A stretch of DNA of 31,720 nucleotides from Pseudomonadota bacterium (GTDB lineage: Bacteria > Desulfobacterota > Desulfobacteria > Desulfobacterales > C00003060). The position numbers and the translations under genes were made by a program. The DNA lies in the NCBI GenBank assembly GCA_015222985.1, contig JADFWI010000071.1:1-31720 (forward strand), in the 5' to 3' direction. The notes below the pieces were generated by a model. The model searched no databases. It was not told where the DNA came from and worked only from the letters and a program-made list of their open reading frames with translations. Positions 31-26,118 of the stretch are shown here, piece by piece. Numbering within the stretch: position 1 is the first letter of the stretch; each line of letters starts with the position of its first letter.

Positions 31-122
31 GTTCGAAAAAGGCAAACCACTCGAAAGGGTGGGACGCAAAGCCACTGGCCTAAGTCCGAAGTTTTAAGGA
101 TAGGGTAGCAGGGTTGCCGAGC
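31..122 (+). ncRNA. Cyclic di-GMP-I (GEMM) riboswitch aptamer
   Basis: Hallmark string GGCAAACC-actc-GAAA-gggt-GGGACGCAAAGCC..GGCCTAA....GGTAGC.GGGTTGCCGA at 41-120. P1 can form between GTTCG (31-35) and CGAGC (118-122). The position equivalent to G20 of the Vibrio Vc2 aptamer is G. Lies about 60 nt upstream of the ATG at 184. Confidence 0.95.
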
Positions 123-183
123 AGATGCAGCGCCTCTTTGAAGCTGTGTTTTGCGCGGCCAAAGAAGTACTGGAGGTGCTGCA

Positions 184-3100
184 ATGTCACCACGATTTTA
201 CATAGCAAAGTCTTTACGAACCCGGGTTTTCAGTCTTTCCTTTTTTCGGTTTCTGTCCTTTGTCATTCTCCTCTCTGGTATCCTGGTATTTCCTCAAAAT
301 GCCTGTGCAGTAGAGGTAACATTGGCCTGGGACGCCAATGGCGAAGAAGACCTTGAAGGTTACAGGATTTTTTATCGCGAAGATGGCCAGAATCACGATT
401 ACGATAATCCGGCCTGGCAAGGCACTGCCACAACATGCACGATTTCGGGTCTGGATGACAATACGACTTACCATTTTGTGGCAAGGGCTTATGATACTTC
501 GGATAATGAAAGCACCGATTCCGATGAGGCCACATATCAGAGTTATACGCTCCTGTTAAGCACATCGTCAGACCGCTCAAACTCAGTGTCATTGCAGAGT
601 GAAACAGTGACTGGTAACATCTTTGTCTTCACCGGCCCTGATGAAGGTGTCGAGCAGGTGAGTTTTTATCTGGATGACCCGGACATGAACGGAGCCCCTC
701 GGCAGGTCGAAGAAGTCATCCACTATGATTTTGCGGGCACTGCCGGTGATGACTCTGCCAACCCTTTTGATACTACTCAGATCTCCAACGGGCAACACGA
801 GATCACCGCGTTCATCGAGTTGACGGCCGGTGGCAGTCGAACTGTGAGCGCTACATTTACCGTAGCCAACAGCACAAACACGCCGCCCACAGCCGACAAC
901 CAGTCCGTAAGTACCCATGAAGACATATCCGTGAGTATGACACTGACTGCCACCGATGTTGATGGAGACAGCCTTACGTACACGTTAGTCGACCAGACGT
1001 CGCATGGAACATTATCAGGCACGGCCCCCAACCTGACCTATTCGCCCGACGTGAACTACAACGGTTCAGACAGTTTTAGCTTCAAAGCTAACGATGGCCA
1101 GAGTGACTCGGAACTTGGCACTGTAAGCATTACGCTAACCGCCGTAAACGATGCCCCCGTAGCCAATGATCAATCTGTCTATACAGACGAAGACACGGCA
1201 ATTAGCGGTACTCTGGACGCCAGTGATGTAGATGGTGACGCACTCACGTATGTGCTTGTAACCAGTGGAAGCAAGGGCACGGCATCGGTAACCAATTCAT
1301 CAACCGGCGCCTTCATATACACCCCAAATCAAAACGCTAATGGTACTGACACCTTCACCTTTAAGGCCAATGACGGCACCACAGACTCGAACACAGCAAC
1401 GGTTACGGTGACTATTACTCCTGTAAATGACGCCCCCGTGCTTGACAGCATCGGCGCAAAGAGCGTAGACGAAGACTCGCTGCTTACATTTACCGTCACG
1501 GCAACAGATGCGGACGGCGACACGCTCACATACTCTGCCGGAAACCTTCCTACGGGCTCAAGCTTTGATGCTGACACACAGAGCTTTGCCTGGACCCCGG
1601 GCTACGGTTCTGCCGGAAACTATACGGTAACCTTTACGGTGACTGACAGCGGCACTCCGGCCCAGAGCGATTCCGAGCAGGTAACGATCACTGTGGGTGA
1701 CGTTAATAGACCGCCTACAGCCGATGCAGGTGACGAGCAGAGCGTTGACGAGGGAGATACGGTTACTTTGGATGGCTCAGGTTCATTTGATCCTGACGGC
1801 ACCATTTCTTACAGTTGGTCCCAGCAAGCAGGGCCGACCACAACATTGTCTGATGCATCGGCAGTCCGGCCTTCATTCACGGCTCCGGATGTTGAAGAGG
1901 ATGGCGCAACGCTATCCTTTCAGTTGACAGTGACCGACAATGGTGGACTCGAATCGACAGCCACCTGCATTGTGTATGTTTCCTGGGTAGACGACTCCCC
2001 TGCCCTCACCAGCCTGTCCATTAGCGGGTCGAGTTCGGTAGCGGAAAACAGCACCTCTAACTACACAGCCACGGCCACATTCAGCGACGGGAGCACTCAA
2101 ACTGTTACCGCAAGCGCTGACTGGAGCGAGGAGTCATCTTATGCCGGCATTAGCGGTAGCGGCGTGCTTTCCGCGTCAGAGGTAACTGGCGACGAGACAG
2201 TGACTATTACGGCAAGCTATACTTCTTCTGGTGTGACAAAGACGGATCAGAAGTTGGTGACGATCACAGATGTGCCGGAATCCAATCTTCCCTCTTCAAC
2301 ACCGGTTATCGCATCTCCCTACGACGGCCAGATGGAGTGTGACCTTATGCCGAGCATTACCACCGAGGCTTTCTCAGATCCTGATGGGGACCCGCAGAGC
2401 CAAAGTCAATGGCAAATCAGCAAACAAGAGGACATCTCGTCCCTGATTCTTGATATTACTACCACCGATCAGCTCGTAGAACTGCCCGTTCCCCACACGA
2501 TGCTTGAAGCAGACACGACATATTATGTGCGCGTCCGATTTTACGATGTACATGGTGAGGCCTCTGACTGGTCAGACACTGTTGAGTTCACCACCACTAT
2601 TGACGACAACGATGTTGACGGTAACGGTGTCCCAGACGATCAGGAAGTTGGCGACGATGTGGACCTCAATGAAGATGGCGTTGCTGACAACGACCAGCCA
2701 GGCGTCATCAAATGCGCACAATACGTTTCTAACAATGTCACCGTTGGCGTTGGCAAGGCGTCTAATTCCGTAACTGCCATAGAAAGCGTTGAAACGATTG
2801 AGCCATCAAGCGTTTTTGACAATCCCTTGGTAGAATTCACAACAGGGCGCAATATTATCAAACAAAAAAGCTTGATATTCGGACTGTTTTCCTATCGGAT
2901 TCGCGTGAACGAGCCCGGAGCTTCAGCTACGGTGAAGATTTATTTCTCGAAAAAGATTTCACCGGGTTCAATCTTCTGCAAATATGACACGGTCAGTGGC
3001 TGGCAGGACTACTCCGAACATACGATTTTTGAGAAAAATCGCAGGTCTATTACCCTGGAAGTCAAAGACGGCGGCTATGGGGATAGCGATGGAGTGGCCA

Positions 3101-3423
3101 ATGGCATCATCCTCGATCCAGGTGGAATTGCCGAAACAAGCAGTGGAGAGGATGGATCTGCCTTGAGTGGTGACACAAGCATTGGATGTTTCATTAATAC
3201 TGCCGGATTTGACTCAGACTCATGTGAGGAGTCCAGCAAAATCGTCGGCTCATGTGAGCCCGTTATGCGACTAATAGTAGTCCCTCTGGTAGGAATCAGG
3301 TATGTTCTTGTTAATGCTTTTGGGACGACCGGCACCGTAGCCGGACTCCTGCTCGCAGCGTTGTTTCTGGCTGGCTTGCTACGGAACCATGGCAGGTTAC
3401 TCTCAGGAAGTCAGGAATCATAG
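184..3423 (+). CDS. Large secreted/surface protein (putative adhesin): signal peptide, FN3, Ig-like domain, 2 cadherin-like Big_9-type repeats, putative-Ig, PKD/REJ, BIG_2-like, FN3-like, DxDxNG Ca-binding repeats, choice-of-anchor U domain, CFI-box-like C-terminal membrane anchor
   Basis: ATG at 184 with GGAGG at 172-176 (the ORF track starts at TTG 151). Hydrophobic signal ends QNACA. FN3 'VTLAWDAN..DLEGYRIFY..TTYHFVARAYD'; 'NTPPTADNQSV.T.ED..LTATDVDGDSLTY' type repeated twice; 'NRPPTADAGDEQSVDEGDTVTLDGSGSFDPDG'; 'ITLEVKDGGYGDSDGVANGIILDPGG'; 'GCFI' then a hydrophobic helix and a basic residue. Confidence 0.9.
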   Translation: MSPRFYIAKSLRTRVFSLSFFRFLSFVILLSGILVFPQNACAVEVTLAWDANGEEDLEGYRIFYREDGQNHDYDNPAWQGTATTCTISGLDDNTTYHFVARAYDTSDNESTDSDEATYQSYTLLLSTSSDRSNSVSLQSETVTGNIFVFTGPDEGVEQVSFYLDDPDMNGAPRQVEEVIHYDFAGTAGDDSANPFDTTQISNGQHEITAFIELTAGGSRTVSATFTVANSTNTPPTADNQSVSTHEDISVSMTLTATDVDGDSLTYTLVDQTSHGTLSGTAPNLTYSPDVNYNGSDSFSFKANDGQSDSELGTVSITLTAVNDAPVANDQSVYTDEDTAISGTLDASDVDGDALTYVLVTSGSKGTASVTNSSTGAFIYTPNQNANGTDTFTFKANDGTTDSNTATVTVTITPVNDAPVLDSIGAKSVDEDSLLTFTVTATDADGDTLTYSAGNLPTGSSFDADTQSFAWTPGYGSAGNYTVTFTVTDSGTPAQSDSEQVTITVGDVNRPPTADAGDEQSVDEGDTVTLDGSGSFDPDGTISYSWSQQAGPTTTLSDASAVRPSFTAPDVEEDGATLSFQLTVTDNGGLESTATCIVYVSWVDDSPALTSLSISGSSSVAENSTSNYTATATFSDGSTQTVTASADWSEESSYAGISGSGVLSASEVTGDETVTITASYTSSGVTKTDQKLVTITDVPESNLPSSTPVIASPYDGQMECDLMPSITTEAFSDPDGDPQSQSQWQISKQEDISSLILDITTTDQLVELPVPHTMLEADTTYYVRVRFYDVHGEASDWSDTVEFTTTIDDNDVDGNGVPDDQEVGDDVDLNEDGVADNDQPGVIKCAQYVSNNVTVGVGKASNSVTAIESVETIEPSSVFDNPLVEFTTGRNIIKQKSLIFGLFSYRIRVNEPGASATVKIYFSKKISPGSIFCKYDTVSGWQDYSEHTIFEKNRRSITLEVKDGGYGDSDGVANGIILDPGGIAETSSGEDGSALSGDTSIGCFINTAGFDSDSCEESSKIVGSCEPVMRLIVVPLVGIRYVLVNAFGTTGTVAGLLLAALFLAGLLRNHGRLLSGSQES

Positions 3424-5294: not shown

Positions 5295-5837
5295 CTAATG
5301 AAAACTCAGTTCAAGTTTGCTGACATTGCCTACTCCCAGGCTTCCAAGGGATCTGTATTTGGGCGGGATGCTCTTTGTCGAAATCCATGACTCACGGTCC
5401 GGATCATACTTGAAGTACAATAAGGTTGTATATCTGAACACGGGCACACCAGGTATTCGGTAGCGAACCACCAACTTCATGTAACAGTGTTCCCTTTGCT
5501 GGATTCCACCAGCAGGGCCAGGGATATCCGGGACCTGCAACCTGACAGGAGTTGCCTCGGATTCAACCCTCTGGTGGATTTCAGGCAGGTTGGCCAACAA
5601 TGCCACCTGGCCGGCCCAATACCAAAAGGCGTCCACTTTGTATATGACCGCATTCAAGGTTCCTTGGTTCCTGACATGGATGCCGGCGCAGTCAGGAACG
5701 ATTATAATGACAGGTCGAGAAATCCCAAAATATCCCAGTACGACGAGGAGGAGGAGTAATATGCAGCCGCCACCAATCGCCCCTTTCTTAGTGAGGTTTC
5801 GGAGCTTTTCCTTGAAATAGTCTACCTCCTTACTCAT
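5295..5837 (-). CDS. Hypothetical single-pass membrane protein with a beta-rich extracytoplasmic domain
   Basis: 180 aa; basic N-terminus then TM 'GGGCILLLLLVVLGYFGI'. Overlaps the upstream methyltransferase stop by 8 bp and ends 1 bp before the next gene. Confidence 0.7.
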   Translation of the reverse strand: MSKEVDYFKEKLRNLTKKGAIGGGCILLLLLVVLGYFGISRPVIIIVPDCAGIHVRNQGTLNAVIYKVDAFWYWAGQVALLANLPEIHQRVESEATPVRLQVPDIPGPAGGIQQREHCYMKLVVRYRIPGVPVFRYTTLLYFKYDPDRESWISTKSIPPKYRSLGSLGVGNVSKLELSFH

Positions 5838-6465
5838 GATACCGTTCTACCCTGTCGTTTTTTACAGCTACCAGGATATAGAGCCGGGGCTCATCAATCA
5901 GATCTTGAATCTCGAATCCATAGGGCTCAAACAAGTCTTGAGCCTCCGATCGCTGCGGAAAATCATCCAAAGGGAAAGGGGACTTCTCTTTCAATGAGTC
6001 AATAAACGATTTGCCCATAGGATGACTTATCACCATGCGCCCATTTAGTTTCATCATCCGGCTAACATTGGCAATACTGCTGTCTTTGTCCACAATATTG
6101 GGATAACAGGCGTTCATCATGACTACATCAATACTCTCGCTAGAAAGACTTATGTTCCGGACGTCCGCAGCAATGGCAAGTGCATACGGATAGTGTTTTC
6201 TGAGGTGCACCAACATAGCCTCCGAAAGGTCACAGGCAAATATCGTCCGTGGTTGATAAGCCCGGATCAACGGAATCAGTATGCCTGTGCCCGAACCTAC
6301 ATCCAGAACAGTCTCTCCTTTGTTGATCCTGGCTGAAGCCACAATCTTTTCCAAGCGTTCAGGCACGCCTTCGGGCAGAGGCGGATCAAAGACGTGGATA
6401 AGGCCGCTGAAGAAATCCCGTTGGACCTGATTGATTCTCCTGATTTCGTCCTTAGTCGGCTTCAT
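5830..6465 (-). CDS. Class I SAM-dependent methyltransferase
   Basis: Motif I 'VLDVGSGTGIL', motif II 'IFACDLSEAML', and 'ADV..ISLSSESIDVVMMNACYP'. Confidence 0.9.
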   Translation of the reverse strand: MKPTKDEIRRINQVQRDFFSGLIHVFDPPLPEGVPERLEKIVASARINKGETVLDVGSGTGILIPLIRAYQPRTIFACDLSEAMLVHLRKHYPYALAIAADVRNISLSSESIDVVMMNACYPNIVDKDSSIANVSRMMKLNGRMVISHPMGKSFIDSLKEKSPFPLDDFPQRSEAQDLFEPYGFEIQDLIDEPRLYILVAVKNDRVERYHE

Positions 6466-6477
6466 GCCCGAATCCGT

Positions 6478-6834
6478 TCACAGGAGTCCCTTTTCCATGA
6501 GAAAACTCATAGTCCTGTGACTGATTGTTGCGGATTGGCTGATAGCACGCGAAAAGCCATCCATGGCACCGGCGGAAGCGTTTGAATCGACCATGGTCAG
6601 ACCATTGTCGAGTTCTTCTCGAATGTTCGCCCATTCCTCTTGCGGTGAGACCTTGTGGGCCAGTCCGATGTCTTGATACAAAGATCTCAAGAAAGTGGAA
6701 AAGACTTTGTTCGCCCCTCCTTTTTCACTATCCGAAAGCCCCTCAATCACCATGGCCAGTTGCGAAGCCACTATGAGGCTGGCCTTCATTCTTTCACCCA
6801 TCATGAAACCGAGGATCGCCTCTTTCTCTGTCAT
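6478..6834 (-). CDS. Hypothetical all-helical protein (~118 aa)
   Basis: In line with its operon neighbours. GGGAGG precedes the ATG at 6834 (track start 6846). No family recognised. Confidence 0.7.
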   Translation of the reverse strand: MTEKEAILGFMMGERMKASLIVASQLAMVIEGLSDSEKGGANKVFSTFLRSLYQDIGLAHKVSPQEEWANIREELDNGLTMVDSNASAGAMDGFSRAISQSATISHRTMSFLMEKGLL

Positions 6835-6860
6835 GTGCCCTCCCATCGTCGTTGCTTCGT

Positions 6861-7679
6861 TCAGGAGTCAAAAAGATCCTTTTCAGCCCGACGTGTTTCT
6901 TTAACAAAGACCTTGACTTTCTCATAGTCCTTTTTGAATCGAACAGGTTGTCCATTTCCATCTCGTGCGTTGGTTCTTGTGCAGCTATCTACACCAAAGG
7001 GTTTGACAGCCATTACCCCTTCATAGACATTCTCTGGTGACAGTCCGCCAGCCAGAATGACAGGGATTGAACTCGACTCAACAAGCCGACCGGCCGATAT
7101 CCAATTGCACGTGAATCCTGTGATGCCCAAATACCCTTCAACCGGCTCATTGCCAAGCCACGTGTCGGTTAGAAAATAATCGCTTGCGGCCTCAAAACAT
7201 CTGGCGATTTCCAGTGTCGGAATCCTCTCAATGCTTGTTGGGGTGGGAATGGGAACAGAGCGCATAAGCTCAATTCTTGGGAATCGCTCTTTTATTGAAA
7301 TCTGAAGTTCAACAAGAGCCTCCCAAGGCATCCTGCCGCCTTGGGCAGTATACAGAGATTCGCAAAAATGTACAATATCCGGCTCGTAGTATTCAATGGC
7401 CTGAAACAACACGTCTTTTGTATCAAATAGCGGAATCAGACTGTGCTTCACCCGACTTGCCTTTGAGACAAGGATTGCCTCCTTTACGGCCGGCGACTTC
7501 CAGTCTTTCTCGGAGAGGATAACACTTCCAATGCGGTCAACACCAAGCTCGATAACTCCCTCGGCCTCCCTGGGATCCTGTATCTCGTAGATCTGAACGG
7601 CGATTCTTGTTTTTTTCATTGCCGGAGGCCGTTTGGGTTTCAATCTCGCAACCTGCAATCCAGAATTTCCTATCGCCAT
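6861..7679 (-). CDS. Phosphoribosylanthranilate isomerase (TrpF)-like TIM-barrel protein with a divergent active site
   Basis: 'PVILAGGLSPENV..GV..VKPFGVD', 'YFLTDT', 'PDIVHF', 'GVDRIG' match the TrpF fold. N-terminal 'VQIYEIQ' replaces 'VKICGIT'. Alternative start ATG at 7619. Confidence 0.75.
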   Translation of the reverse strand: MAIGNSGLQVARLKPKRPPAMKKTRIAVQIYEIQDPREAEGVIELGVDRIGSVILSEKDWKSPAVKEAILVSKASRVKHSLIPLFDTKDVLFQAIEYYEPDIVHFCESLYTAQGGRMPWEALVELQISIKERFPRIELMRSVPIPTPTSIERIPTLEIARCFEAASDYFLTDTWLGNEPVEGYLGITGFTCNWISAGRLVESSSIPVILAGGLSPENVYEGVMAVKPFGVDSCTRTNARDGNGQPVRFKKDYEKVKVFVKETRRAEKDLFDS

Positions 7680-8539: not shown

Positions 8540-10822
8540 TTACGGCAACCGCGCTGCCGGAACTTCTCGAGTTATTTCCTTTCGCCCTGATCTGTCTATC
8601 CAGGTGCGAAACATCTCGCAAAAACCCATCGCCTTCGGGTCCATGCGAAGTTGTTCCAGGCCATACTTCATTTTCAGGGACCAATTCGGGTATTCATTGG
8701 TGGTTCCCGGCAGATTTTGCTGCCTGTCATCCTTAAGCAGGTCTTCCTGGCTCAACACAAAGAGCTTGGCCGACGCCAGGGCAAGAAAGCCCACCACGGC
8801 ATTGTGAATCTCACCAGTAATCTCAGGATAGGCCTTTGGGTCTGTGCCACACTCAACAGAAAGAAGGCCCATCTCATGCAGCAGCTTCAGCAACTTCTCC
8901 TTGTCTGCCTCCCTTTCAGCAGCAGCCCCGGCAATAGCCTGTTTGTTTTCGAACATCCCTGCATCCTTGCGAATCTCGATGTCCCTGTGCGTCCAGAATC
9001 CGGCCAGGGTGGGCAGATCGTGGGTGGCAGCCGTAACTAAGGCCAGTTCGGGATAATCCGTCGTCCGAATGAAGTTCTCCTGATCATCCTTTTCAAAATA
9101 GAGGAGCCTATAGGAGAAGACGTTCGCTTCAGTCAGTCTTTTGCGTATGTACGGTGGCACGGTTCCGAGGTCTTCACCAATGATGACCACCTTGCTTCGC
9201 ACGCTCTCCAAGGCAAGAATCATGAGCAAATCCTCAAAGGGCTGTGACACATAAGCCCCTTTTCCCGGGGGCTCCCCCTCAGGTATGTAGTAAAGATGAA
9301 AAAACCTCATAACATGATCAATTCGCAAGGCCCCTCCAAAGGAGCAATTCTTCCGAATCTCTTTGACAAATAGGTCATAGCCGCTTTCTCGGAACCTTTC
9401 TGTGTTGGGGGGAGGGAAACCCCAGTCCTGACCGTGTTGTGAGAATGCGTCCGGAGGAGCTCCCACCCGGGCATTGGGAACAAAATAGTCCTGATAGGCC
9501 CAGAAGTCAGCGCCGAACCGGTCGATGGCCAATGCCAGATCATGGTACAGGCCGATACACATCCCCTGTGTCTTTGCATAGTCCTGGACTTGAGCAAGCT
9601 GTTCCTCTAACTGCCATTGCACATATTTGTAGAAAAGGACCTCCTGCCAGTGTTCCTCTCGAAATTGCCGGACTGCTTCCGTGTCAGGCCGGTGATATTC
9701 CGGGGGCCATTGCGGCCAAATCCATACGTTTTGATTGCCGGAGCGCATGAATGTCTCTAAAGCGCTGAAGGTGGCGAAGTGGTCCAGCAATTGGCCTTCG
9801 CTTTGGAAATAGGCTTCCAGTTCCTTTTGCCGGTTGGTTTTTTCCCCTTGCCTGTTCCAGTGGTTCTTGAGAAAGGCCTGGAAGGTCAGCCTCAAAACAT
9901 CTTCCTTGAGCGCCGCCACCCCTTCGTATTGCACCTTTTCAGATCTCCTGAACTCGGCTAGCAGCTCTTGAGTGTCTGGTGTCTCAATCAGATGCTGCGC
10001 ATCCGGCGAACATCGAAAATCCTCCAAAGCAGGAATATCCAGGTAGATAAAATTGCGGTAAAACCGGCTGATTGGGAGATAAGGGCTTATGTTATAAGGA
10101 CTACGGTTAAAGGTGGCATGGAGTGGATTTAAGCCGATAATATCTCCGTGAAGGTCTTCTGACACCCAGTCTACAATTTTTTTCAGGTCGCCAAAATCAC
10201 CGATACCCCAGTTCCTCTCGGAACGGACCCCGTAAAGGCTTATGGCAATGCCGGCAGTGCGCCCGTCTTGCTGTAACGCAGGCGGGACGTAAGTTTTATG
10301 AGGACATATGGCTACAGATATGGTCTGCGACTCATGCAAGCCTCCAGTTGTTACTGACAGATGAAACCGGTAATACCCGAGAGCATCGAGTTGTGGGAAG
10401 GGCAAACTCCATCTATAACAAACCTTGCCGGCCAGGCTTATGGAGTCGGAAAAAGACAAGTCCTTTTGAGTGTAAGAAATGCTTTGTGTCACATCCTGTT
10501 CATCAGTGATGGCTAGACAAACATCGAGGTCCTCGCTCCGTATCTCTTCCGGGCCCACAGGTACCTGAAAAATGAGTTTTCTTGGAAGGTCATAAAGATT
10601 AGCCACGATCGTAGATTCGGCAAGACGACACCACTCACCCTCCAACCGGGAACGCCACGCCCCCTTCGCCTGGCTCGTGTCATCAGCCAAGACCCCCATA
10701 GCCCTGAGAATCTTTTTCTTGGTGTCCACAGGGGTTCGATGGACTCTCCCCCAGTTGTCGCTGTATTCCGGCTCGATCCCGTAGGAAAGGGCCAATTTTT
10801 CAATGATCGATTCTTCGGACAA
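8540..10822 (-). CDS. malQ: 4-alpha-glucanotransferase (amylomaltase, GH77), long form
   Basis: 'LYGVRSERNWGIGDFGDL', 'GLNPLHA', 'SPYLPISRFYRNFIYLD', 'GLYHDLALAI', 'GAPPDAFSQHGQDWGFPP', 'ALRIDHVM', 'IIGEDLGTVP', 'QNLPGTTNEYPNW'. TTG start. Confidence 0.97.
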   Translation of the reverse strand: MSEESIIEKLALSYGIEPEYSDNWGRVHRTPVDTKKKILRAMGVLADDTSQAKGAWRSRLEGEWCRLAESTIVANLYDLPRKLIFQVPVGPEEIRSEDLDVCLAITDEQDVTQSISYTQKDLSFSDSISLAGKVCYRWSLPFPQLDALGYYRFHLSVTTGGLHESQTISVAICPHKTYVPPALQQDGRTAGIAISLYGVRSERNWGIGDFGDLKKIVDWVSEDLHGDIIGLNPLHATFNRSPYNISPYLPISRFYRNFIYLDIPALEDFRCSPDAQHLIETPDTQELLAEFRRSEKVQYEGVAALKEDVLRLTFQAFLKNHWNRQGEKTNRQKELEAYFQSEGQLLDHFATFSALETFMRSGNQNVWIWPQWPPEYHRPDTEAVRQFREEHWQEVLFYKYVQWQLEEQLAQVQDYAKTQGMCIGLYHDLALAIDRFGADFWAYQDYFVPNARVGAPPDAFSQHGQDWGFPPPNTERFRESGYDLFVKEIRKNCSFGGALRIDHVMRFFHLYYIPEGEPPGKGAYVSQPFEDLLMILALESVRSKVVIIGEDLGTVPPYIRKRLTEANVFSYRLLYFEKDDQENFIRTTDYPELALVTAATHDLPTLAGFWTHRDIEIRKDAGMFENKQAIAGAAAEREADKEKLLKLLHEMGLLSVECGTDPKAYPEITGEIHNAVVGFLALASAKLFVLSQEDLLKDDRQQNLPGTTNEYPNWSLKMKYGLEQLRMDPKAMGFCEMFRTWIDRSGRKEITREVPAARLP

Positions 10823-10931: not shown

Positions 10932-11504
10932 ATGAAAGTCACGTCATCTCCTGCTCTGCCCGAAGTAATTATTATTGAGCCCGATGTTTACAGAGACGAG
11001 CGTGGCCATTTTCTCGAAACCTATCAGGCCGGGCGGTATTTCCAATATGAGATCCCTTCCAGTTTCGTGCAGGACAACTTATCCTTTTCCGGACGAGGCG
11101 TACTGCGGGGATTGCACTATCAAATCGGCAAACCCCAGGCAAAGCTCGTCTGGGTCGTTCAAGGAGAAGCCTTTGATGTGGCTGTTGATATTCGCCGGGG
11201 TTCTCCAACCTTTGGCAAGTGGGTTGGGATAACCCTTTCTTCCGAGAAATACCGCCAGGTCTATATTCCAGAGGGCTTTGCCCACGGTTTCTGCGTGACC
11301 GGCGAATATGTAATATTAGCATATAAATGTACAGATTGCTATGCCCCGAAAGAAGAGCGTGGGATTCGATGGGATGATCCGTCATTGGCTATCGAATGGC
11401 CTGTTGCAACGCCCATTCTTTCAGATAAAGATGGCGCATATCCAACTCTGAAGGAAATCCCTCCGGAAGAACTGCCTGCCTTTAATGCAAGGCAATCAGG
11501 ATGA
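10932..11504 (+). CDS. rfbC: dTDP-4-dehydrorhamnose 3,5-epimerase
   Basis: 'DERGHFLETY', 'FVQDNLSFS', 'GVLRGLHYQ', 'DVAVDIRRGSPTFGKW', 'IPEGFAHGF'. AAGGAG precedes the ATG at 10932 (track start 10884). Confidence 0.97.
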   Translation: MKVTSSPALPEVIIIEPDVYRDERGHFLETYQAGRYFQYEIPSSFVQDNLSFSGRGVLRGLHYQIGKPQAKLVWVVQGEAFDVAVDIRRGSPTFGKWVGITLSSEKYRQVYIPEGFAHGFCVTGEYVILAYKCTDCYAPKEERGIRWDDPSLAIEWPVATPILSDKDGAYPTLKEIPPEELPAFNARQSG

Positions 11505-11972
11505 TAAAACAAGGCTTACCACGCACATGGCGGCTATTGCCTCCCCTCGTCCAATAGCGTCTATGCCCTCCATGGTCGTTGCCTTGATGTTGACACGTCC
11601 GAGTTCGATGTTAAGGAGCGTCGCGATATTGGTCTCCATGGCTCTGCAATAAGGGGCCAGCTTAGGGGCTTCGGCCAGTATAGTGGCATCCAGGTTGTTG
11701 ACAGAAAAGCCCCTTTCACGAATCATTTCGATGACTTTTGTCACAAACACTGTGCTCGAAATGTCCTTGAACTTGGGATCTGTATCCGGGAAATGACGGC
11801 CAATATCTCCCATGCCGGCTGCTCCCAGCAAGGCATCACACGTTGCATGAAACACAACGTCTGCATCAGAATGGCCCATGAGACCCTTTTCAAAAGGTAT
11901 GGTTACGCCACCGAGGACGAGCCTTCGGCCTTGTACCAACCGATGCAGATCGTATCCCAAGCCCACGCGCAT
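11496..11972 (-). CDS. ispF: 2-C-methyl-D-erythritol 2,4-cyclodiphosphate synthase
   Basis: 'MRVGLGYDLHRL', 'GHSDADV..HA.CDALLGAAG.GDIG.HFPDTDP', 'NIKATTMEG...IGRGE.IAA'. Confidence 0.98.
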   Translation of the reverse strand: MRVGLGYDLHRLVQGRRLVLGGVTIPFEKGLMGHSDADVVFHATCDALLGAAGMGDIGRHFPDTDPKFKDISSTVFVTKVIEMIRERGFSVNNLDATILAEAPKLAPYCRAMETNIATLLNIELGRVNIKATTMEGIDAIGRGEAIAAMCVVSLVLSS

Positions 11973-11996
11973 TTGGAAATTCTCTCTCATCAGATA

Positions 11997-13154
11997 TCAG
12001 GACCGGACCACAGCATCCCACGCATGCAGATGGAGTTCATTTTTTCCATATTCAGATGCATCTGAGCAATCCCCTGCAAGCCGTTCAAGAACTGTGTCAT
12101 ACCGGCTGACAACATTTTCCCACAAAAACGACCTCATTTTCTCTGCCAGCCGGATCCGAATTAATTCATACCGCTTATAATCTGAAATTATCAAAAAAAG
12201 CTTTTCCATAAGATCATGTCTGTTTTTATAAAGAAAGTGCTCATGGAACTCTTCCGGAAGTATCTCAGGATATGAAAGCCTGTCAGGCAGCAGCGGTACG
12301 CATCCCATGATCATTGCTTCTATAACGGAGATGCCGAAGTTCTCCTGCATTGCAGTGCTTATTACAACTGCACCCCGTTTAAGCCATTTCTGATACTCCT
12401 CCCGTAAAAGAATATATCCGAACTGAAGGATTTTGTCCTTAAATCTCTCTTCCGCCTGCTTAAACTCTTCAGGTATCAGGCCAAAGTTCTCTCCCATAAG
12501 CGCTATATGAAAATCAAGCCCTCTGTCATTGAGATCTTCAAGCACATTAAAAAATATTTTATAGTTCTTGTCAAACCCCCATCTGTGGTTCCAAATAATG
12601 AGGGGAGGATCTGTCTGTTTCTCAGCATCAACATCCCCGTAAGATGGCAGTGTTATGCCAGGGTATAGGACTCCAGATTTTTCACGGATTTTATCTGCCA
12701 CCCCTTTAGGCCTGAAGTCACGCCCCCTTTTTAGGAACTCCGGTACGGCATTTAGAAAAGCATCCTTATGCATTTTTGAATTAAACACAACAAGGTCGGC
12801 CACAACCGCAGTAGTAATGTTGATTATGCCTAACTGAAAGGCGCCTTTGTCGCCGGGCGGCTGCGGATAAGTCATCTGGTTTTCATGGAAATATGCCAGA
12901 ACAGGTGGGCACGGTAAACCGACAAGTGCCTTGAAATCCGCCAGATTGAAAAGATCGGTGACAATAATACCGTCATATTCTTCAAGCGGGGGGATGTTAT
13001 CTACAATATGAAGCGCGGCCCCAAGCATACGCCAGCGCCAGTTTTCTCCGGGCATGGACACAATATCAATATCATGCGAGGAGTATGTAGACAGTCCGTT
13101 CACAAAAAGCGCGTGCGAACCCTGACAGTATGTTTCCAGAAAAAGGTACTTCAA
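11997..13154 (-). CDS. DUF3524-domain GT-B glycosyltransferase, homolog of animal GTDC1/QTMAN (tRNA-queuosine alpha-mannosyltransferase)
   Basis: 'FLETYCQGSH', 'PGENWRWRM', 'YFHENQMTYP', 'ADLVVFNS', 'WNHRW..DK', 'VVISTAMQENFGISVIEA...GCVPLLPDRLSYPEILP'. TTG start with GAGGTG upstream. Confidence 0.88.
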   Translation of the reverse strand: MKYLFLETYCQGSHALFVNGLSTYSSHDIDIVSMPGENWRWRMLGAALHIVDNIPPLEEYDGIIVTDLFNLADFKALVGLPCPPVLAYFHENQMTYPQPPGDKGAFQLGIINITTAVVADLVVFNSKMHKDAFLNAVPEFLKRGRDFRPKGVADKIREKSGVLYPGITLPSYGDVDAEKQTDPPLIIWNHRWGFDKNYKIFFNVLEDLNDRGLDFHIALMGENFGLIPEEFKQAEERFKDKILQFGYILLREEYQKWLKRGAVVISTAMQENFGISVIEAMIMGCVPLLPDRLSYPEILPEEFHEHFLYKNRHDLMEKLFLIISDYKRYELIRIRLAEKMRSFLWENVVSRYDTVLERLAGDCSDASEYGKNELHLHAWDAVVRS

Positions 13155-15189: not shown

Positions 15190-15603
15190 ATGACAAATGC
15201 ACAGAAAAGCAAAGTCGTTGCCAAGAAAACGGGCCCTGCTGCAAAAAGAACAACCAAGAAAAAGCCAACATCAAAAAAGGCGGATACGATGAGCGTCGGC
15301 ATCAAAAAAGAATATCTCAAGAGCAGAGATATGTGCAAAGTGACATTCAGATTGCCGAAAATCGCCGCTCCTGACGCCAAAAACGTATGCATCGTAGGAG
15401 ATTTTAATAATTGGAATGTTTACGCCAATCCCATGAAGAGGCTTAAAAATGGGGGGTACACCATTACGCTTGCGCTTAAGCCAGGAAAGGAATATCAGTT
15501 TCGTTATCTCATCGATGAGTCAAAGTGGGAAAATGATTGGAACGCAGATAAATACGTGAAAAGCCCTTTCGGAGACAGTGATAACTCAGTTATCGTAGTT
15601 TAA
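15190..15603 (+). CDS. Stand-alone CBM48 / isoamylase early-set (glycogen-binding) protein with a Lys-rich N-terminal tail
   Basis: 'IKKEYLKS..CKVTFRLP', 'IVGDFNNW....PMK', 'LKPGKEYQFRYLID...WENDWNAD'. AAAGGAG precedes ATG 15190. Confidence 0.9.
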   Translation: MTNAQKSKVVAKKTGPAAKRTTKKKPTSKKADTMSVGIKKEYLKSRDMCKVTFRLPKIAAPDAKNVCIVGDFNNWNVYANPMKRLKNGGYTITLALKPGKEYQFRYLIDESKWENDWNADKYVKSPFGDSDNSVIVV

Positions 15604-15612
15604 AGTAATATC

Positions 15613-16308
15613 TTATTTGCCCAGGAGAGCCTCCGCCATTTTTAGATCTTCAGGCGTCGTAATCTTGATGTTACCAGGGTCACCAGGTATCACCTTAACT
15701 ACCTCGCCGCACATCTCAACCAATTCGGCGTCGTCGCTACCCGCGTAATCTTCCTTCTGTGCGGCCACATGAGCGCCCAGTATAATATTGTAATAGAAAG
15801 CCTGCGGGGTCTGGGCCATACGGATCATGTGGCGTTTCATGGTAACAACCACACGGTTCTCATCATCTATGGTTTTCACAGTATCACTTGCCGGCAAGGC
15901 AAGGATGCACCCCCCGTGTTTTTCTGCTGTCTTGACACACTGCGTTATTTTTTCAATCCTGATCAAAGGGCGGACACCGTCATGAATAGCCAAGATCTCG
16001 AATCTTCCTTCAGTCGCCATTAAACCGTTGAAGACTGACTCCTGCCTTGAGCCCCCCCCCGAAACCAAATGAACCGGTTTGTGCAGTTCCAGCGTACCGA
16101 TTATCTCCTGTTGACACAGATCATAGTCCTTTTCGGCAATCACCAGAAATATCTCTTCTATGACATCACAGTTGTCAAAGGCAGACATGGTGTGCGCCAA
16201 CACAGGGCGGCTTCCCAACATCGTGTACTGCTTTTTTTGTGCCGTCCCCATACGAACGCCGTTCCCGGCAGCGACAATGACGGCAGCGACTCTATTCTGT
16301 CTGTCCAT
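15613..16308 (-). CDS. ispD: 2-C-methyl-D-erythritol 4-phosphate cytidylyltransferase
   Basis: 'IVAAGNGVRMG...KKQY', 'GGGSRQESVFNGL', 'IHDGVRPL', 'AQTPQAF', 'DDAELVE', 'NIKITTPEDL'. Confidence 0.97.
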   Translation of the reverse strand: MDRQNRVAAVIVAAGNGVRMGTAQKKQYTMLGSRPVLAHTMSAFDNCDVIEEIFLVIAEKDYDLCQQEIIGTLELHKPVHLVSGGGSRQESVFNGLMATEGRFEILAIHDGVRPLIRIEKITQCVKTAEKHGGCILALPASDTVKTIDDENRVVVTMKRHMIRMAQTPQAFYYNIILGAHVAAQKEDYAGSDDAELVEMCGEVVKVIPGDPGNIKITTPEDLKMAEALLGK

Positions 16309-16332: not shown

Positions 16333-17646
16333 TTATTTCAAATAGAAAAGCTCTCTGGGAAGCGGTATTCCCTTGCCCATGGAATCCTCGCCATAGTTCA
16401 CACTGGCCAGGATCCGGATATCACTTAAGGCACGCTTGTCCCCTTGAAATACCACCTCGGGGATAACTTCCTTCTGGATCTTGCCCCCCGCCCATTGCAG
16501 ATCAAGCACACTGCTTGCGTCAAACCTGTCATAGCCCACACATAACTCCACTTGGCCACCGTAGTGCTGGACGATCTTGGCCACGAGCAGGCTCGGCCGG
16601 CTGTGAAAACCCATCTTTTGGGGTACGCCCGCCATGATGGTACCCCGCTCGATATTTTCATTCAAAAGCTCCTGAGCAAGACCCTGGCCTGCCACAAGGA
16701 AGTGGCAAACGTAATAGAGACCGTAATTTACAATACAGTCAAGGATTTCTTCCGGCTTGACTGCCTTGCTCAATTCGTCACGCACTTCGATACAAATATT
16801 CTTGTACCCTACTTCATATAGGTGACGCTCATAGTAGTGGAGGAGTCTGCGGGTCAACTCCAGAAGGTGCAGCACAACCGAGATGTAACCTCGCAAGCTC
16901 TTCAGCCTCATATTCCGCAATTGGAGTCCGCTCCTGTTCACATAAGTGTCAAAGGAGGACTGAAGACTGTGAACGGCCATTTCAAATCGCCGCGCCTGCT
17001 CTTCGTTAAATCTGCCGGGGACAATGGCCTTGATCTCATCTACGCAATGCGGTTGGTAAAAACCGTGCATTTCAAAGTCTCTGGATGCTCTCAAAAACTC
17101 GGTTGTGATCTTTACGATGTTCTTTTGCTCCTCTTTTAGGTTTTCATCGTCAATGTCAGATTCAAGGCGGTTGTTGCTCGGTATCCCAGGAAAATCATCC
17201 CAGACAAAACTGTCCGAGGGCAACTCTATCTCCAGGTGCTTAGCTTCTTCCAATGCCTTCGAAGAGATGGACCGCAAAGAGCTTGTAAGGAACTTGTGGG
17301 TCCTGTATCCTGCTTCCTCGAACCGATCGGTATCAGCCAAATTGTAAAAAGGAAGCCTGATATAGATATGTTTTTGCGAGTAACTCGCCTCTGAGAGGTT
17401 TCTCACGCTGGAAACCAGTTCTCGATAGTAATACCACTTCGAGCTGTTTTTTGCCCCATGAAAATCCAAGAAATCTTCCAAAAGCTTTGAGCTCGAGACC
17501 ATCTGCGCATACAGTTTCTTGGTGAAGGTCTCACGGACAGGTTCACTTCCGTCAAGGTAGGCACAAAGCTTAAGAAAATCCCAGGAAAAATGGTGAACCT
17601 TTTCAGCGAAACCACCGCCTTGCAGAAGAGCTGTTGCTTGATGCAT
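16333..17646 (-). CDS. Large protein with a C-terminal HPr phosphocarrier domain fused to a ~330 aa helical region of unknown function
   Basis: 'GFHSRPS' (His15-type site) and 'RFDASSVLDL' (Ser46-type site), 31 residues apart as in HPr. GAAGGA precedes ATG 17646 (track start TTG 17679). Confidence 0.85.
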   Translation of the reverse strand: MHQATALLQGGGFAEKVHHFSWDFLKLCAYLDGSEPVRETFTKKLYAQMVSSSKLLEDFLDFHGAKNSSKWYYYRELVSSVRNLSEASYSQKHIYIRLPFYNLADTDRFEEAGYRTHKFLTSSLRSISSKALEEAKHLEIELPSDSFVWDDFPGIPSNNRLESDIDDENLKEEQKNIVKITTEFLRASRDFEMHGFYQPHCVDEIKAIVPGRFNEEQARRFEMAVHSLQSSFDTYVNRSGLQLRNMRLKSLRGYISVVLHLLELTRRLLHYYERHLYEVGYKNICIEVRDELSKAVKPEEILDCIVNYGLYYVCHFLVAGQGLAQELLNENIERGTIMAGVPQKMGFHSRPSLLVAKIVQHYGGQVELCVGYDRFDASSVLDLQWAGGKIQKEVIPEVVFQGDKRALSDIRILASVNYGEDSMGKGIPLPRELFYLK

Positions 17647-17698
17647 CAAAAATCCTTCCAAGAATCGGGAATATCCCAAGTTTCTATTATGTAGTTAT

Positions 17699-18102
17699 GT
17701 CAGAGTAGGCCGTAAGCCGAGTTCTGTTTTCCGTATCGGTCACCCTTTACGGAACAACGATCATTCATCTTGGGGTGTTGATTGCTCAAAACCTCTTGCG
17801 ACCAACCCGGAAGCTCGGACGGGCCGTCCTCAAGTGCTTCCCTATTCGGTCTTGCTCCAGGTGGGGTTTACCTAGCTTCCCCGGTCACCCAGGGAACTGG
17901 TGCGCTCTTACCGCACCTTTTCACCCTTACCCTCCGAGACAGGCACAAGGCCAATCCCTTAAGGCGGTGTGTTTTCTGTGGCACTTTCCTTCGCGTCACC
18001 GCGACTCCGCGTTACGGAGCACCCTGCCCTGTGGAGCTCGGACTTTCCTCCCGCATCCATGACTATGTCGAAGATGCGAGCGATCGTTTGGCCTACTCTG
18101 AC
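17699..18102 (-). ncRNA. rnpB: RNase P RNA (bacterial type A)
   Basis: Minus strand carries the universal GAGGAAAGTCCGAGCTCC near the 5' end, AAGGAAAGTGCCACAGAAAA internally and AACAGAACTCGGCTTA near the 3' end. P1 is perfect: GTCAGAGTAGGCC pairs with GGCCTACTCTGAC. Confidence 0.98.
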
Positions 18103-20239: not shown

Positions 20240-21985
20240 CTACATTTCCAAAAAGGCTTTCAGTTTGCGGCTTCTCGTAGGATGGCGAAGCTTTCTCAGT
20301 GCCTTTGCTTCAATTTGCCTGATCCTCTCACGGGTCACATGAAAGTCCTTTCCCACCTCTTCAAGGGTATGGTCAGCCTTTTCACCAATGCCAAATCGCA
20401 TCCGCAATACCTTTTCTTCACGGGGAGTCAGTGTAGCCAGTGATTTTCGGGTCTGCTCTGCGAGGTTCAGGCTAATGGCCGCCTCAGAGGGTGACATGAA
20501 TTTCTTGTCCTCAATAAAGTCGCCAAGATGGCTGTCTTCTTCCTCTCCGATAGGCGTCTCCAGAGAGATAGGCTCCTTGGCAATTTTTAGGACCTTGCGG
20601 ACTTTTTCCAAAGGAAACTCCATTTTTTCGGCAATTTCATCTGGAGTGGGTTCCCGCCCAAGTTCCTGGACCAAATATCGCGAGGTACGAATCAGCTTAT
20701 TAATGGTTTCAATCATGTGCACAGGGATTCGGATGGTGCGAGCCTGATCAGCAATGGCCCTTGTGATCGCTTGCCTAATCCACCACGTTGCATATGTGCT
20801 GAACTTGTAACCTCGTCTGTACTCAAATTTGTCAACGGCCTTCATGAGACCCACATTTCCTTCCTGAATCAGGTCAAGGAACTGAAGCCCCCGATTTGTA
20901 TATTTCTTTGCTATACTGACAACTAACCTTAAGTTCGCATTCACCATTTTTGCTTTGGCGACCCGAGTATTTTGTTGACCTTGTATGATTCGGGCCAAGA
21001 TCCGTTTTAGGCCCTGAGCGTTCATTTTTAGATCGAGTTCCTGTTGCCGGATAGCCTCATCTATTTCACCGGCTCGTTTCACAAGCTTGGAAAACTCGCT
21101 TTTCTGTAGGTTGCTTTGTTTCCAGTGCTTATCAACAAATCTTGTTCTCGCCTTGGAACCATTGCGCATTTGACTCAAAGTGACACCTGCCCGATAAGCA
21201 CACTGGGCAAATTCTTTTCCCAGTGCCTCAAAGCGTGCGATATGGTTTTCGACCTCATCAACAATAGAATCGATCCATCTTGACTCTAGTCTCCAATCCT
21301 TGATGTCGTCGAAGATTTTGCGATTCCTCCGATTGATGCAGCGCCTAACCCGGCGACGTTCTTCCCGACCCAGTCGCGGTCCAAACAGCCGTTTCCTGTA
21401 CTTTTCATTCTCTTCGTCGATCATGTTGATGATATCAACGATGTTACAAATCTTTTGTATATGTTCGGCTTCCTCAATATAAGTATCGATTTCATCTACA
21501 TCGCGCAGGACGTCCCTCAAGCGGATCTTGCCATTTCGAAGGTCTTTGACAACGCTGATTATCCCTCTAACTCCCACTGTTGAGTCCACCAGAGTCTTCA
21601 ATACCTCCTGTTCTCCTGCCTCGATCTGTTTGGCGATTTCGACTTCCCCCTCTCGGCTCAGCAAGGAGACCAAACCCATTTCGCGAAGGTACATTTTAAC
21701 GGGATCTGTGACGCGCCCGAAAGCGTCCTTCTCTGGTTGCGCGGGAGGCTTTGACTTCACAAGAGGATGTTTGCGCACAATCTTTTTTTCAAGAGCCCTG
21801 ATTTCCCTTCCATCGATGATTTCAATATCGAGTTCATCAAAAACCATCATCATTTCGTCTATTTGCTCGGCAGAAACATTGCCATTCGGCAACGCATCAT
21901 TAAGCTCCTCATAGGTAAGGTAGCCCTGCTTTTTTCCTTTTGTGATGAGTTGTTTTAAATCGTGAACCTCGGACTTCTTGGGCAT
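20240..21985 (-). CDS. rpoD: RNA polymerase primary sigma factor sigma70
   Basis: Region 1.1 '[17 protein letters not shown]', 1.2 '[24 protein letters not shown]', region 2 '[58 protein letters not shown]', region 4 '[28 protein letters not shown]'. Confidence 0.99.
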
Positions 21986-25286: not shown

Positions 25287-25380
25287 TTTGAAGAAAATCA
25301 GGAAGTAGAGGAGTTTGTTTCTCCTTTTCTGCTATTGGCGGCAGATTTTTACCGGCAACCTAATCAAAGGAAACGTAATC

Positions 25381-26118
25381 ATGGATACCGACAACAAGAA
25401 CAAGGAAGGTCAGATATCCGAAGATGCTGGGGATCTCTCATTGTCATATGATGATGAGAATCTCGTGATGGAGGGATCCGGAAATGAACCTGGTTCATCG
25501 GAAGACCTTTTTCTTGAGACAGAAGCCGAGGGGGAAGACGAAGTCATTGAACTGGTCGATGCCGTGACAGAGGAGTCGGAAGGCCAAGATGTCTTGGAAT
25601 TGACTGACCGGGTTGAGGACCAAGGTTCTCAGGCCGAGGAAGAGGATTTGTTGGAGTTTTCAGGGGCTGAGCTTGCTCCCGATGAGCCTGATGAAGATGG
25701 CCTCGCAGAAGATGTTGGCATGGAGATTACCGAGGAGCGCCCCGAGATGCCTGTTGCCGAGGAACCAGTAGACGATTTGGAGATATCCCAGGACCTCCGA
25801 GATGCCGCAGTTGAAGGGGACGAAATCCCAGAAGATCTTGGAGGATTCGGTGAATCAGATGTAGAAGAGGATGCCGGTGAACTGGTGGAGCCGTCGGTTT
25901 CATATCCTGAGCAGGGGCTGGTTTCAGAAGCTGGAGCGCAACCGGCCGATAAGGCGCTGGAACCCGCGATTCTTGAAAGGCTTTCTGACGAAAGGATAGA
26001 AGAAATCGTTACGCGTGTAGCAAGGGAAGCAGTAGAGAAAAAGGCCGATCGAATACTCCTTGAAGTTGCCGAGGCAGCCATTGCAAAGGAGATAGAAAGA
26101 ATCAAACAAGCGCTTTGA
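25381..26118 (+). CDS. Highly acidic, largely disordered protein with a C-terminal PopZ/RomR-type helical domain
   Basis: 245 aa from ATG 25381 (AAAGGA upstream); 81 D/E (about 33%) by hand count. Motifs 'EDEVIELVD' and 'DVLELTD'. C-terminus 'LSDERIEEIVTRVAREAVEKKADRILLEVAEAAIAKEIERIK'. Confidence 0.8.
   Translation: MDTDNKNKEGQISEDAGDLSLSYDDENLVMEGSGNEPGSSEDLFLETEAEGEDEVIELVDAVTEESEGQDVLELTDRVEDQGSQAEEEDLLEFSGAELAPDEPDEDGLAEDVGMEITEERPEMPVAEEPVDDLEISQDLRDAAVEGDEIPEDLGGFGESDVEEDAGELVEPSVSYPEQGLVSEAGAQPADKALEPAILERLSDERIEEIVTRVAREAVEKKADRILLEVAEAAIAKEIERIKQAL

Follow-up and report, generated by a model that had tools for sequence, protein, structure and literature searches.

Free HPr can be replaced in the PTS by a multidomain carrier, for which FPr is the precedent. 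HPr domains lying within larger proteins are found in FPr/FruB, DhaM, and EI-HPr-EIIA fusions, and the PTS of Desulfotalea psychrophila was called incomplete or absent (PMC2405797). A His-to-His drain of phosphate from a phosphocarrier has its precedent in SixA and NPr (PMC7948535). Here, a protein joining an HPr domain to a helical domain of 320 residues that has a His-rich site, herein referred to as the HPr-fusion protein, was analyzed in a Desulfobacterota genome (contig JADFWI010000071.1). Some bacteria have no other HPr, so this fusion probably functions as a carrier in the relay and brings a control domain of its own. The window, i.e., the whole stretch of DNA that was analyzed, comprises 31,720 nucleotides.

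The layout proposed by the sequence-only reading was confirmed (Table 1). The open reading frame translates to 437 aa with both of the quoted helical blocks and the LLHYYERH motif, the His of GFHSRP is His348, and Ser379 follows 31 residues on. The gene is located between rnpB, which ends 51 nt upstream, and ispD, which starts 24 nt past the stop codon. The window contains no PTS gene, and thus no transporter, EI, or HprK gene. The HPr-fusion gene is real, since 2489 homologues were found at E<=1e-3 (90% collection), the N-terminal domain alone as query retrieved 342 clusters at 50% identity, and the full-length AlphaFold model has a pLDDT of 93.8 and a pTM of 0.91.

Table 1. Features of the HPr-fusion gene and of its neighbors, in window coordinates.
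Feature	Coordinates	Strand	Remarks
HPr-fusion gene, whole	16333..17646	-	437 aa: helical domain, HPr domain, and conserved C-terminal tail; single copy
Four-helix bundle 1, residues 13-137	17236..17610	-	conserved E57, D61, A65, N68, H93, Y101
Four-helix bundle 2, residues 170-331	16654..17139	-	conserved E215, R219, H226, Q229, D233, R252, H260, H270, E273, R274, H275
Most conserved polar stretch, His226-His275	16822..16971	-	with His93 (codon 17368-17370), putative functional site(s) at the bundle interface
HPr-fold domain, residues 334-420	16387..16647	-	ends in an F/Y-G-E motif common to the free HPr of the genome
His348, equivalent of HPr His15	16603..16605	-	in diverse homologues: His 106/107, Arg350 106/107, Pro351 105/107
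Ser379, equivalent of Ser46	16510..16512	-	kept in 52/53 of the short and 21/54 of the long subfamily
Conserved C-terminal tail (P430, L433, Y435, L436)	16336..16386	-	absent from free HPr
rnpB	17698..18099	-	upstream neighbor; Rfam 322 bits; context kept only in Desulfobacterales
ispD	15613..16308	-	downstream neighbor; context kept only in Desulfobacterales
rpoD	20240..21985	-	2.6 kb upstream, in a dnaG-rpoD-tRNA-nif3-zinc ribbon-rnpB block; bears on the possibility of a sigma regulator

RNA-library contigs from one study, derived from a 95-97% identical relative, span most of the gene, which is no proof of transcription or of an operon. A promoter and terminator scan around the gene gave results at chance level. 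Elsewhere in the window, ispF (11496-11990) is separated from ispD by a CBM48 gene and gpmI, both on the plus strand, and by a glycosyltransferase gene; unlike in the window, ispD and ispF are adjacent in loci L002 and L017. Genes for a GH77 4-alpha-glucanotransferase with a 190-aa N-terminal extension (8540-10822), a QTMAN-like glycosyltransferase (11997-13154), and a stand-alone CBM48 protein (15190-15603) lie near the HPr-fusion gene. A c-di-GMP-I-GGC riboswitch (32-122, plus strand) is located directly 5' of a gene for a 1090-aa adhesin-like protein with Ig/cadherin/PKD domains, the pair spanning 32-3423. No Pfam match at E 1e-5 was found for the open reading frames 6861-7679 (272 aa) and 25315-26118 (267 aa).

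As a single sequence, the protein matches HPr weakly, with 15.7 bits for Pfam PF00381 (cut-off 23) and 19.6 bits for TIGR01003 (cut-off 47.9). The family profile clearly matches solved HPr (E 8.6e-10), and residues 334-420 align with the E. coli HPr structure over 81 residues (Z 10.5, rmsd 2.0; Foldseek prob 1.00). The active-site motif of HPr, His15-x-Arg17-Pro18, corresponds to H348/R350/P351 and is near-invariant across phyla. The protein is a 437-aa fusion and not a free-standing carrier of about 90 aa; the free HPr of this genome is encoded on contig C428. Helix B of the fused domain is extended, and in the long subfamily it is followed by an 85-aa insert with no Pfam match. In P0181 (385-500) and other long members, this insert resembles a duplicated helix ending in G-K-I.

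The Ser of HPr has a helix-capping role. The free HPr of the source genome keeps the same Ser although the genome has no HprK, which the capping role explains without phosphorylation. Ser379 of the fusion is probably structural as well, a helix cap. None of the 71 genomes carrying the fusion encodes HprK. Among Desulfobacterota, HprK was found in 0 of 22 carriers vs. 99 of 229 non-carriers, and it is also absent from all 201 Planctomycetota genomes and from genome G251. This exclusion may reflect lineage history, since many HprK-less genomes do not have the fusion gene and Planctomycetota have no HprK altogether. The earlier claim that both phosphorylation sites are intact is thus not supported for the Ser, which most long members have lost while the N-terminal domain residues stay conserved in both subfamilies. 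Dual His/Ser control with a working Ser site is likewise unsupported, given that no HprK was found in the source genome or in any other carrier.

Two size classes were found, a short one of about 435 aa and a long one of about 515 aa that contains the insert; the named long-type records are from Planctomycetota. Among Desulfobacterota, 22 of the 251 genomes sampled have the gene, and these include every one of the 8 others from this order; among Planctomycetota, 48 of the 201 genomes have it. It is a single-copy gene in both phyla, with one planctomycete genome having two adjacent pieces. These pieces, in a one-contig genome (G355:C1:2813182-2814145), lie in different frames, reflecting a frameshift or a sequencing error. 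Cultured carriers are Desulfosarcina alkanivorans PL12 and Limihaloglobus sulfuriphilus (SMSP2_02601). In databases, the protein is already annotated as HPr family or hypothetical, and the literature searched, in which coverage of subscription journals was sparse, yielded no paper on it; to that extent, the architecture is conserved yet undescribed.

No longer fusions of 766-2185 aa were found, a null result of little weight. One long-type member, P0176 (759 aa), has an N-terminal TIR domain (PF13676, E 3.5e-24) and is a single record. In planctomycete locus L241 (G296:C180), an open reading frame (5563-7530, plus strand) fuses the protein in frame to a calcineurin-like metallophosphoesterase (PF12850); this is also a single record, for which an assembly error is possible. 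A related gene is located directly downstream in seven other loci (L245, L252, L259, L264, L266, L267, and L269).

Elsewhere, the source genome (85% complete) encodes EI, free HPr, EIIA-Ntr in the rpoN operon, and EIIA-Man; no match to EIIC was found in it. As judged by eye from the translations, a gapA-tpiA-secG-like run directly follows the gene for EIIA-Man (G000:C153:1108-3379). In genome G004 (L319), the gene for EIIA-Man is likewise close upstream of gapA, from which a single gene separates it. EI was found in 69 of the 71 carriers and in 55 of the 60 non-carriers. Its co-occurrence with the fusion says little by itself because of this non-carrier baseline, and it was dropped as a discriminating test.

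Free HPr is encoded by 12 of the 21 other Desulfobacterota carriers, including all 8 genomes of the same order. In the other nine and in G251, only the fused domain was found in a search for free HPr at E 0.05. One of the nine, G004, was removed from the HPr-less set: its contig breaks off 366 nt before ptsI, on the upstream side. The eight remaining genomes are 93-100% complete and form one clade. Free HPr was found in 9 of the 10 planctomycete carriers tested, the tenth (G279) having only the fused HPr domain. The HPr-less cases represent about three lineages, all of them draft genomes, and the completeness range refers to the eight Desulfobacterota only.

EI is present in all ten HPr-less genomes, and in the eight Desulfobacterota it keeps its TSH motif. 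EIIA-Ntr is kept in the nine of these ten that were tested, and EIIA-Man is kept as well in the eight Desulfobacterota. The order rsmI-ptsH-ptsI was found in three carriers with free HPr; in seven of the eight HPr-less Desulfobacterota it reads rsmI-ptsI, with no room for ptsH. A custom HPr profile found nothing at rsmI-ptsI or behind ptsN-rapZ-EIIA-Man in this clade. When fused domains were scored against free HPr, the four best scores all came from the HPr-less Desulfobacterota clade. The best explanation is that the fusion serves as the carrier, since both the EI and EIIA ends are kept with only the fused HPr domain between them. Judged by sequence and gene content, the fused domain thus probably carries phosphate from EI to EIIA. 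In the source genome and in all 8 others of its order, this role would be redundant because free HPr is present.

The protein had been proposed to be a regulatory PTS output or sensor of an undescribed type. The regulatory, undescribed part stands, with a transporter-less PTS and an N-terminal domain of no known family; the protein seems to be more than an output, namely a carrier, because it provides the sole HPr domain in some genomes. For co-occurrence with ptsI, ptsN, and hprK, named in the same reading as a check, EI and EIIA-Ntr are kept as described above and HprK was never found.

The AlphaFold model agrees with the model of a homologue in the ESM Atlas, which is independent of it (TM 0.95). 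This agreement and the pTM of the full-length model suggest that the domains pack in a fixed way. Coevolution was analyzed in an alignment of 529 sequences (Meff 305) and gave two antiparallel registers, the first (i+j about 354) pairing helix 72-101 with 246-277 and the second (i+j about 420) pairing helix 107-137 with 298-331. Several of the register pairs recur in both subfamilies. These registers fit a pseudo-symmetric pair of bundles related by a pseudo-twofold, with His93 opposite His260. His226 may lie near His260, as the hairpin register indicates, with a weak coupling (z 2.1). Two sites are probably formed by the conserved polar residues, one centered on His93/226/260 and its mirror on His270/Arg274/His275/Glu57/Asp61. 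The two loosely similar blocks noticed earlier do align in register by profile (E57/Q229, D61/D233, R75/R252, H93/H270), but the score of this internal repeat (hhalign) is not above that of shuffled controls. Couplings between the HPr domain and the N-terminal domain are weak and subfamily-dependent; a docking of the HPr face derived from them did not hold in both subfamilies and was dropped.

The N-terminal domain matches no characterized family in Pfam, fold, profile, or ESM Atlas feature searches. The combination of AlphaFold and Foldseek proposed in the sequence-only reading likewise gave no significant match to a characterized domain. Fold searches returned generic helical bundles only, with designed proteins at the top (Z 11.4), and the matches listed did not include Rsd, EIIA-Chb, or PRD domains. 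The ESM Atlas feature searches returned the HPr-fusion family itself or nothing, and hhalign comparisons with CHAD, HPt, PhoU, ChbA, and Rsd gave nothing significant.

The protein may be a second, self-regulated phosphocarrier of a transporter-less regulatory PTS, a scheme to which, with all steps taken jointly, we give slightly less than an even chance. Anatomy, conservation, and gene distribution are observed here, and all steps of chemistry are inferred. In the first step, EI would quite likely phosphorylate His348 using PEP, as the genomes indicate. In the second, the domain would probably hand the phosphate to EIIA-Ntr or EIIA-Man, replacing free HPr where ptsH is lost; in the source genome, the fused carrier would run beside free HPr. 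In the third and weakest step, the pseudo-symmetric eight-helix domain would control this flux in cis, through a center of His93, His226, His260, Glu263, Gln229, Asp233, and Arg252 and a mirror site of His270, Glu273, Arg274, His275, Glu57, and Asp61. The His center might accept the phosphoryl group and release it again, in analogy to SixA acting on NPr, or a bound metal or metabolite might gate docking of the HPr domain. Ser379 would be structural in this scheme. As a best guess, the helical domain tunes the phosphorylation of the carrier; a role as phosphatase or sensor has no support from any known fold or profile. A bolder version is doubtful. In this version, the helical domain would be a new class of His phosphoacceptor/phosphatase or metabolite sensor that is built into a PTS carrier and sets His348 phosphorylation in HprK-less lineages, with the protein running the whole EI-to-EIIA relay in one Desulfobacterota clade.

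Alternatively, the N-terminal domain could be a metal-dependent enzyme or a metal or small-molecule binder that acts on another substrate and is switched when its own HPr domain is phosphorylated, the carrier role being secondary. This is unlikely, even though the domain is net acidic, has five His, four Glu, and two Asp residues conserved at 80% or more, and probably clusters three of these His (93, 226, and 260). No ferritin-like, hemerythrin, or DinB match above background was found, no metabolic neighbor recurs across lineages, and the loss of ptsH is not explained by such a function alone.

The gene neighborhood raises the possibility that the E. coli HPr-Rsd-sigma70 circuit has a counterpart here in a single fused protein, in which phosphorylation of His348 would switch a helical domain that binds sigma-70. 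In E. coli, dephosphorylated HPr antagonises Rsd (PMC6055147). This precedent and the linkage to sigma genes keep the idea alive, albeit as a rather improbable one. At 32 of 33 short-type Planctomycetota loci, the HPr-fusion gene is divergent from a sigma-70 gene of about 280 aa (directly head-to-head in about two thirds), and rpoD precedes it by 3-6 kb in Desulfobacterales. In the tree, these two sigma-linked groups are separated by lineages without the link. However, no sigma gene is found at long-type loci, at pheT-ihfA loci, or at L110, and the sigma genes of the two groups are of different types and oriented differently. Each of the two links represents a single inherited gene block, in which pyrF, hemN, and parB are equally conserved in Planctomycetota, and no significant profile similarity to Rsd was found. 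The complex predicted for a planctomycete homologue and its neighboring sigma factor scored 0.00, which has no weight either way.

It is improbable that the HPr domain is a protein-binding module only, without phosphorylation. Its scores below the Pfam and TIGR cut-offs, the extended helix B, and the insert of the long subfamily would agree with such a role, but the active-site His, Arg, and Pro are near-invariant, and some genomes that have retained EI and EIIA contain no other HPr domain.

A diverged CHAD domain, tying the PTS carrier to polyphosphate, has a very low probability. The CHAD structure 6qva is the top Foldseek match of the N-terminal domain (prob 0.90, E 0.092), and both proteins appear to share a layout of two four-helix bundles related by a pseudo-twofold (PMC6537752). 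In the N-terminal domain, the C/C' and D/D' helices of the two bundles are in antiparallel register, and the best CHAD alignment has VIA Z 8.3 and rmsd 3.8 over 141 aligned residues. Over the whole domain, however, TM is 0.30 and rmsd 17.6. No member out of 122 matches PF05235, and hhalign probability is under 1%. CHAD binds polyP on a basic surface, and the net charge per 100 aa is -2.0 in the N-terminal domain vs. +4.0 in CHAD, with 3 vs. 8 conserved Arg, as counted from sequence alone.

Regulation of IspD/MEP flux or of RNase P RNA processing under dual His/Ser control, which the sequence-only reading had linked to the gene, is the least credible account: the tight order dnaG-rpoD-nif3-zinc ribbon-rnpB-gene-ispD (rnpB context at 70 and ispD context at 75 of 80 loci), with no terminator-like site between rnpB and the gene, is conserved in Desulfobacterales only, all other lineages examined having pheT-ihfA, pepA-leuS, or unrelated neighbors, and HprK is encoded by no carrier. 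In several Desulfobacterales (L043:3938-5901, L284, L287, and L289), genes for a sufC-like ABC ATPase and a SufBD-domain protein lie between rnpB and the HPr-fusion gene and interrupt this context.

Many sulfate reducers and planctomycetes have a PTS without a sugar transporter or HprK, and for this PTS the HPr-fusion family, read as a self-regulated phosphocarrier, is a candidate control point. The protein would also explain genomes whose PTS seems broken, with EI and EIIA present and no HPr. The predicted carrier role is addressable with four purified proteins, and cultured carriers exist.

EIIA-Lac/Chb proteins are three-helix trimers with H-x-x-Q-T and H-A-Q-D-H motifs. In the N-terminal domain, neighboring helices have H-x-x-Q-S and H-x-x-E motifs reminiscent of ChbA, a loose likeness seen by eye; the profile comparison, with a single ChbA sequence only, was not significant. 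Bundle 2 aligns with CheA P1 of the HPt type (PF01627) at Z 8.1-8.3, a range common for helical bundles (e.g., Z 8.1, rmsd 3.3, 105 aligned), and the likeness is generic. In place of the H-x-x-K-G motif of HPt/CheA P1 it has H-N-L-Q-S, with no Pfam match and an hhalign probability of at most 3.6%. For PhoU, with its tandem three-helix bundles (PF01895), no Pfam match was found, and hhalign gave at most 0.2% against a shallow 9-sequence profile. CHAD (PF05235; 6qva, 5a61), with two pseudo-twofold four-helix bundles and conserved His/Arg, is the best but non-significant Foldseek match; the N-terminal domain is acidic and not basic, arranges its bundles differently, and has no profile match to it. 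The HPr-regulated anti-sigma-70 protein Rsd/AlgQ (PMC6055147) brings together a helical bundle, HPr, and sigma-70, the same cast that the neighborhood suggests. Rsd is a free 158-aa protein without significant similarity to the fusion (probability 1.2% with a single E. coli Rsd sequence, a weak test). SixA acting on NPr (PMC7948535) offers a possible analogy, and an analogy only, for a His-containing domain that drains a phosphocarrier; SixA is a separate alpha/beta enzyme with no likeness in sequence or fold.

Multidomain PTS carriers likewise hold an HPr domain, but the partner domain here is not EI, EIIA-Fru, EIIA-Man, or EIIA-Glc, and no sugar transporter or kinase gene lies nearby. With HPr (PtsH) and NPr (PtsO) of PF00381 and TIGR01003, the fused domain shares the fold, the G-x-H-x-R-P site, the Ser46 position, and the C-terminal G-E motif, and like them it is found in genomes whose transporter-less PTS comprises EI, EIIA-Ntr, EIIA-Man, and RapZ. 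It differs in scoring below the family cut-offs, in being fused behind 330 aa of an unknown helical domain, in the extended helix B and the extra tail, in the 85-aa insert of the long subfamily, in its location away from ptsI, and in never being found with HprK. The N-terminal domain thus falls in no family tested and the protein lies outside the free HPr family; it probably works as an HPr-type carrier within a multidomain PTS protein.
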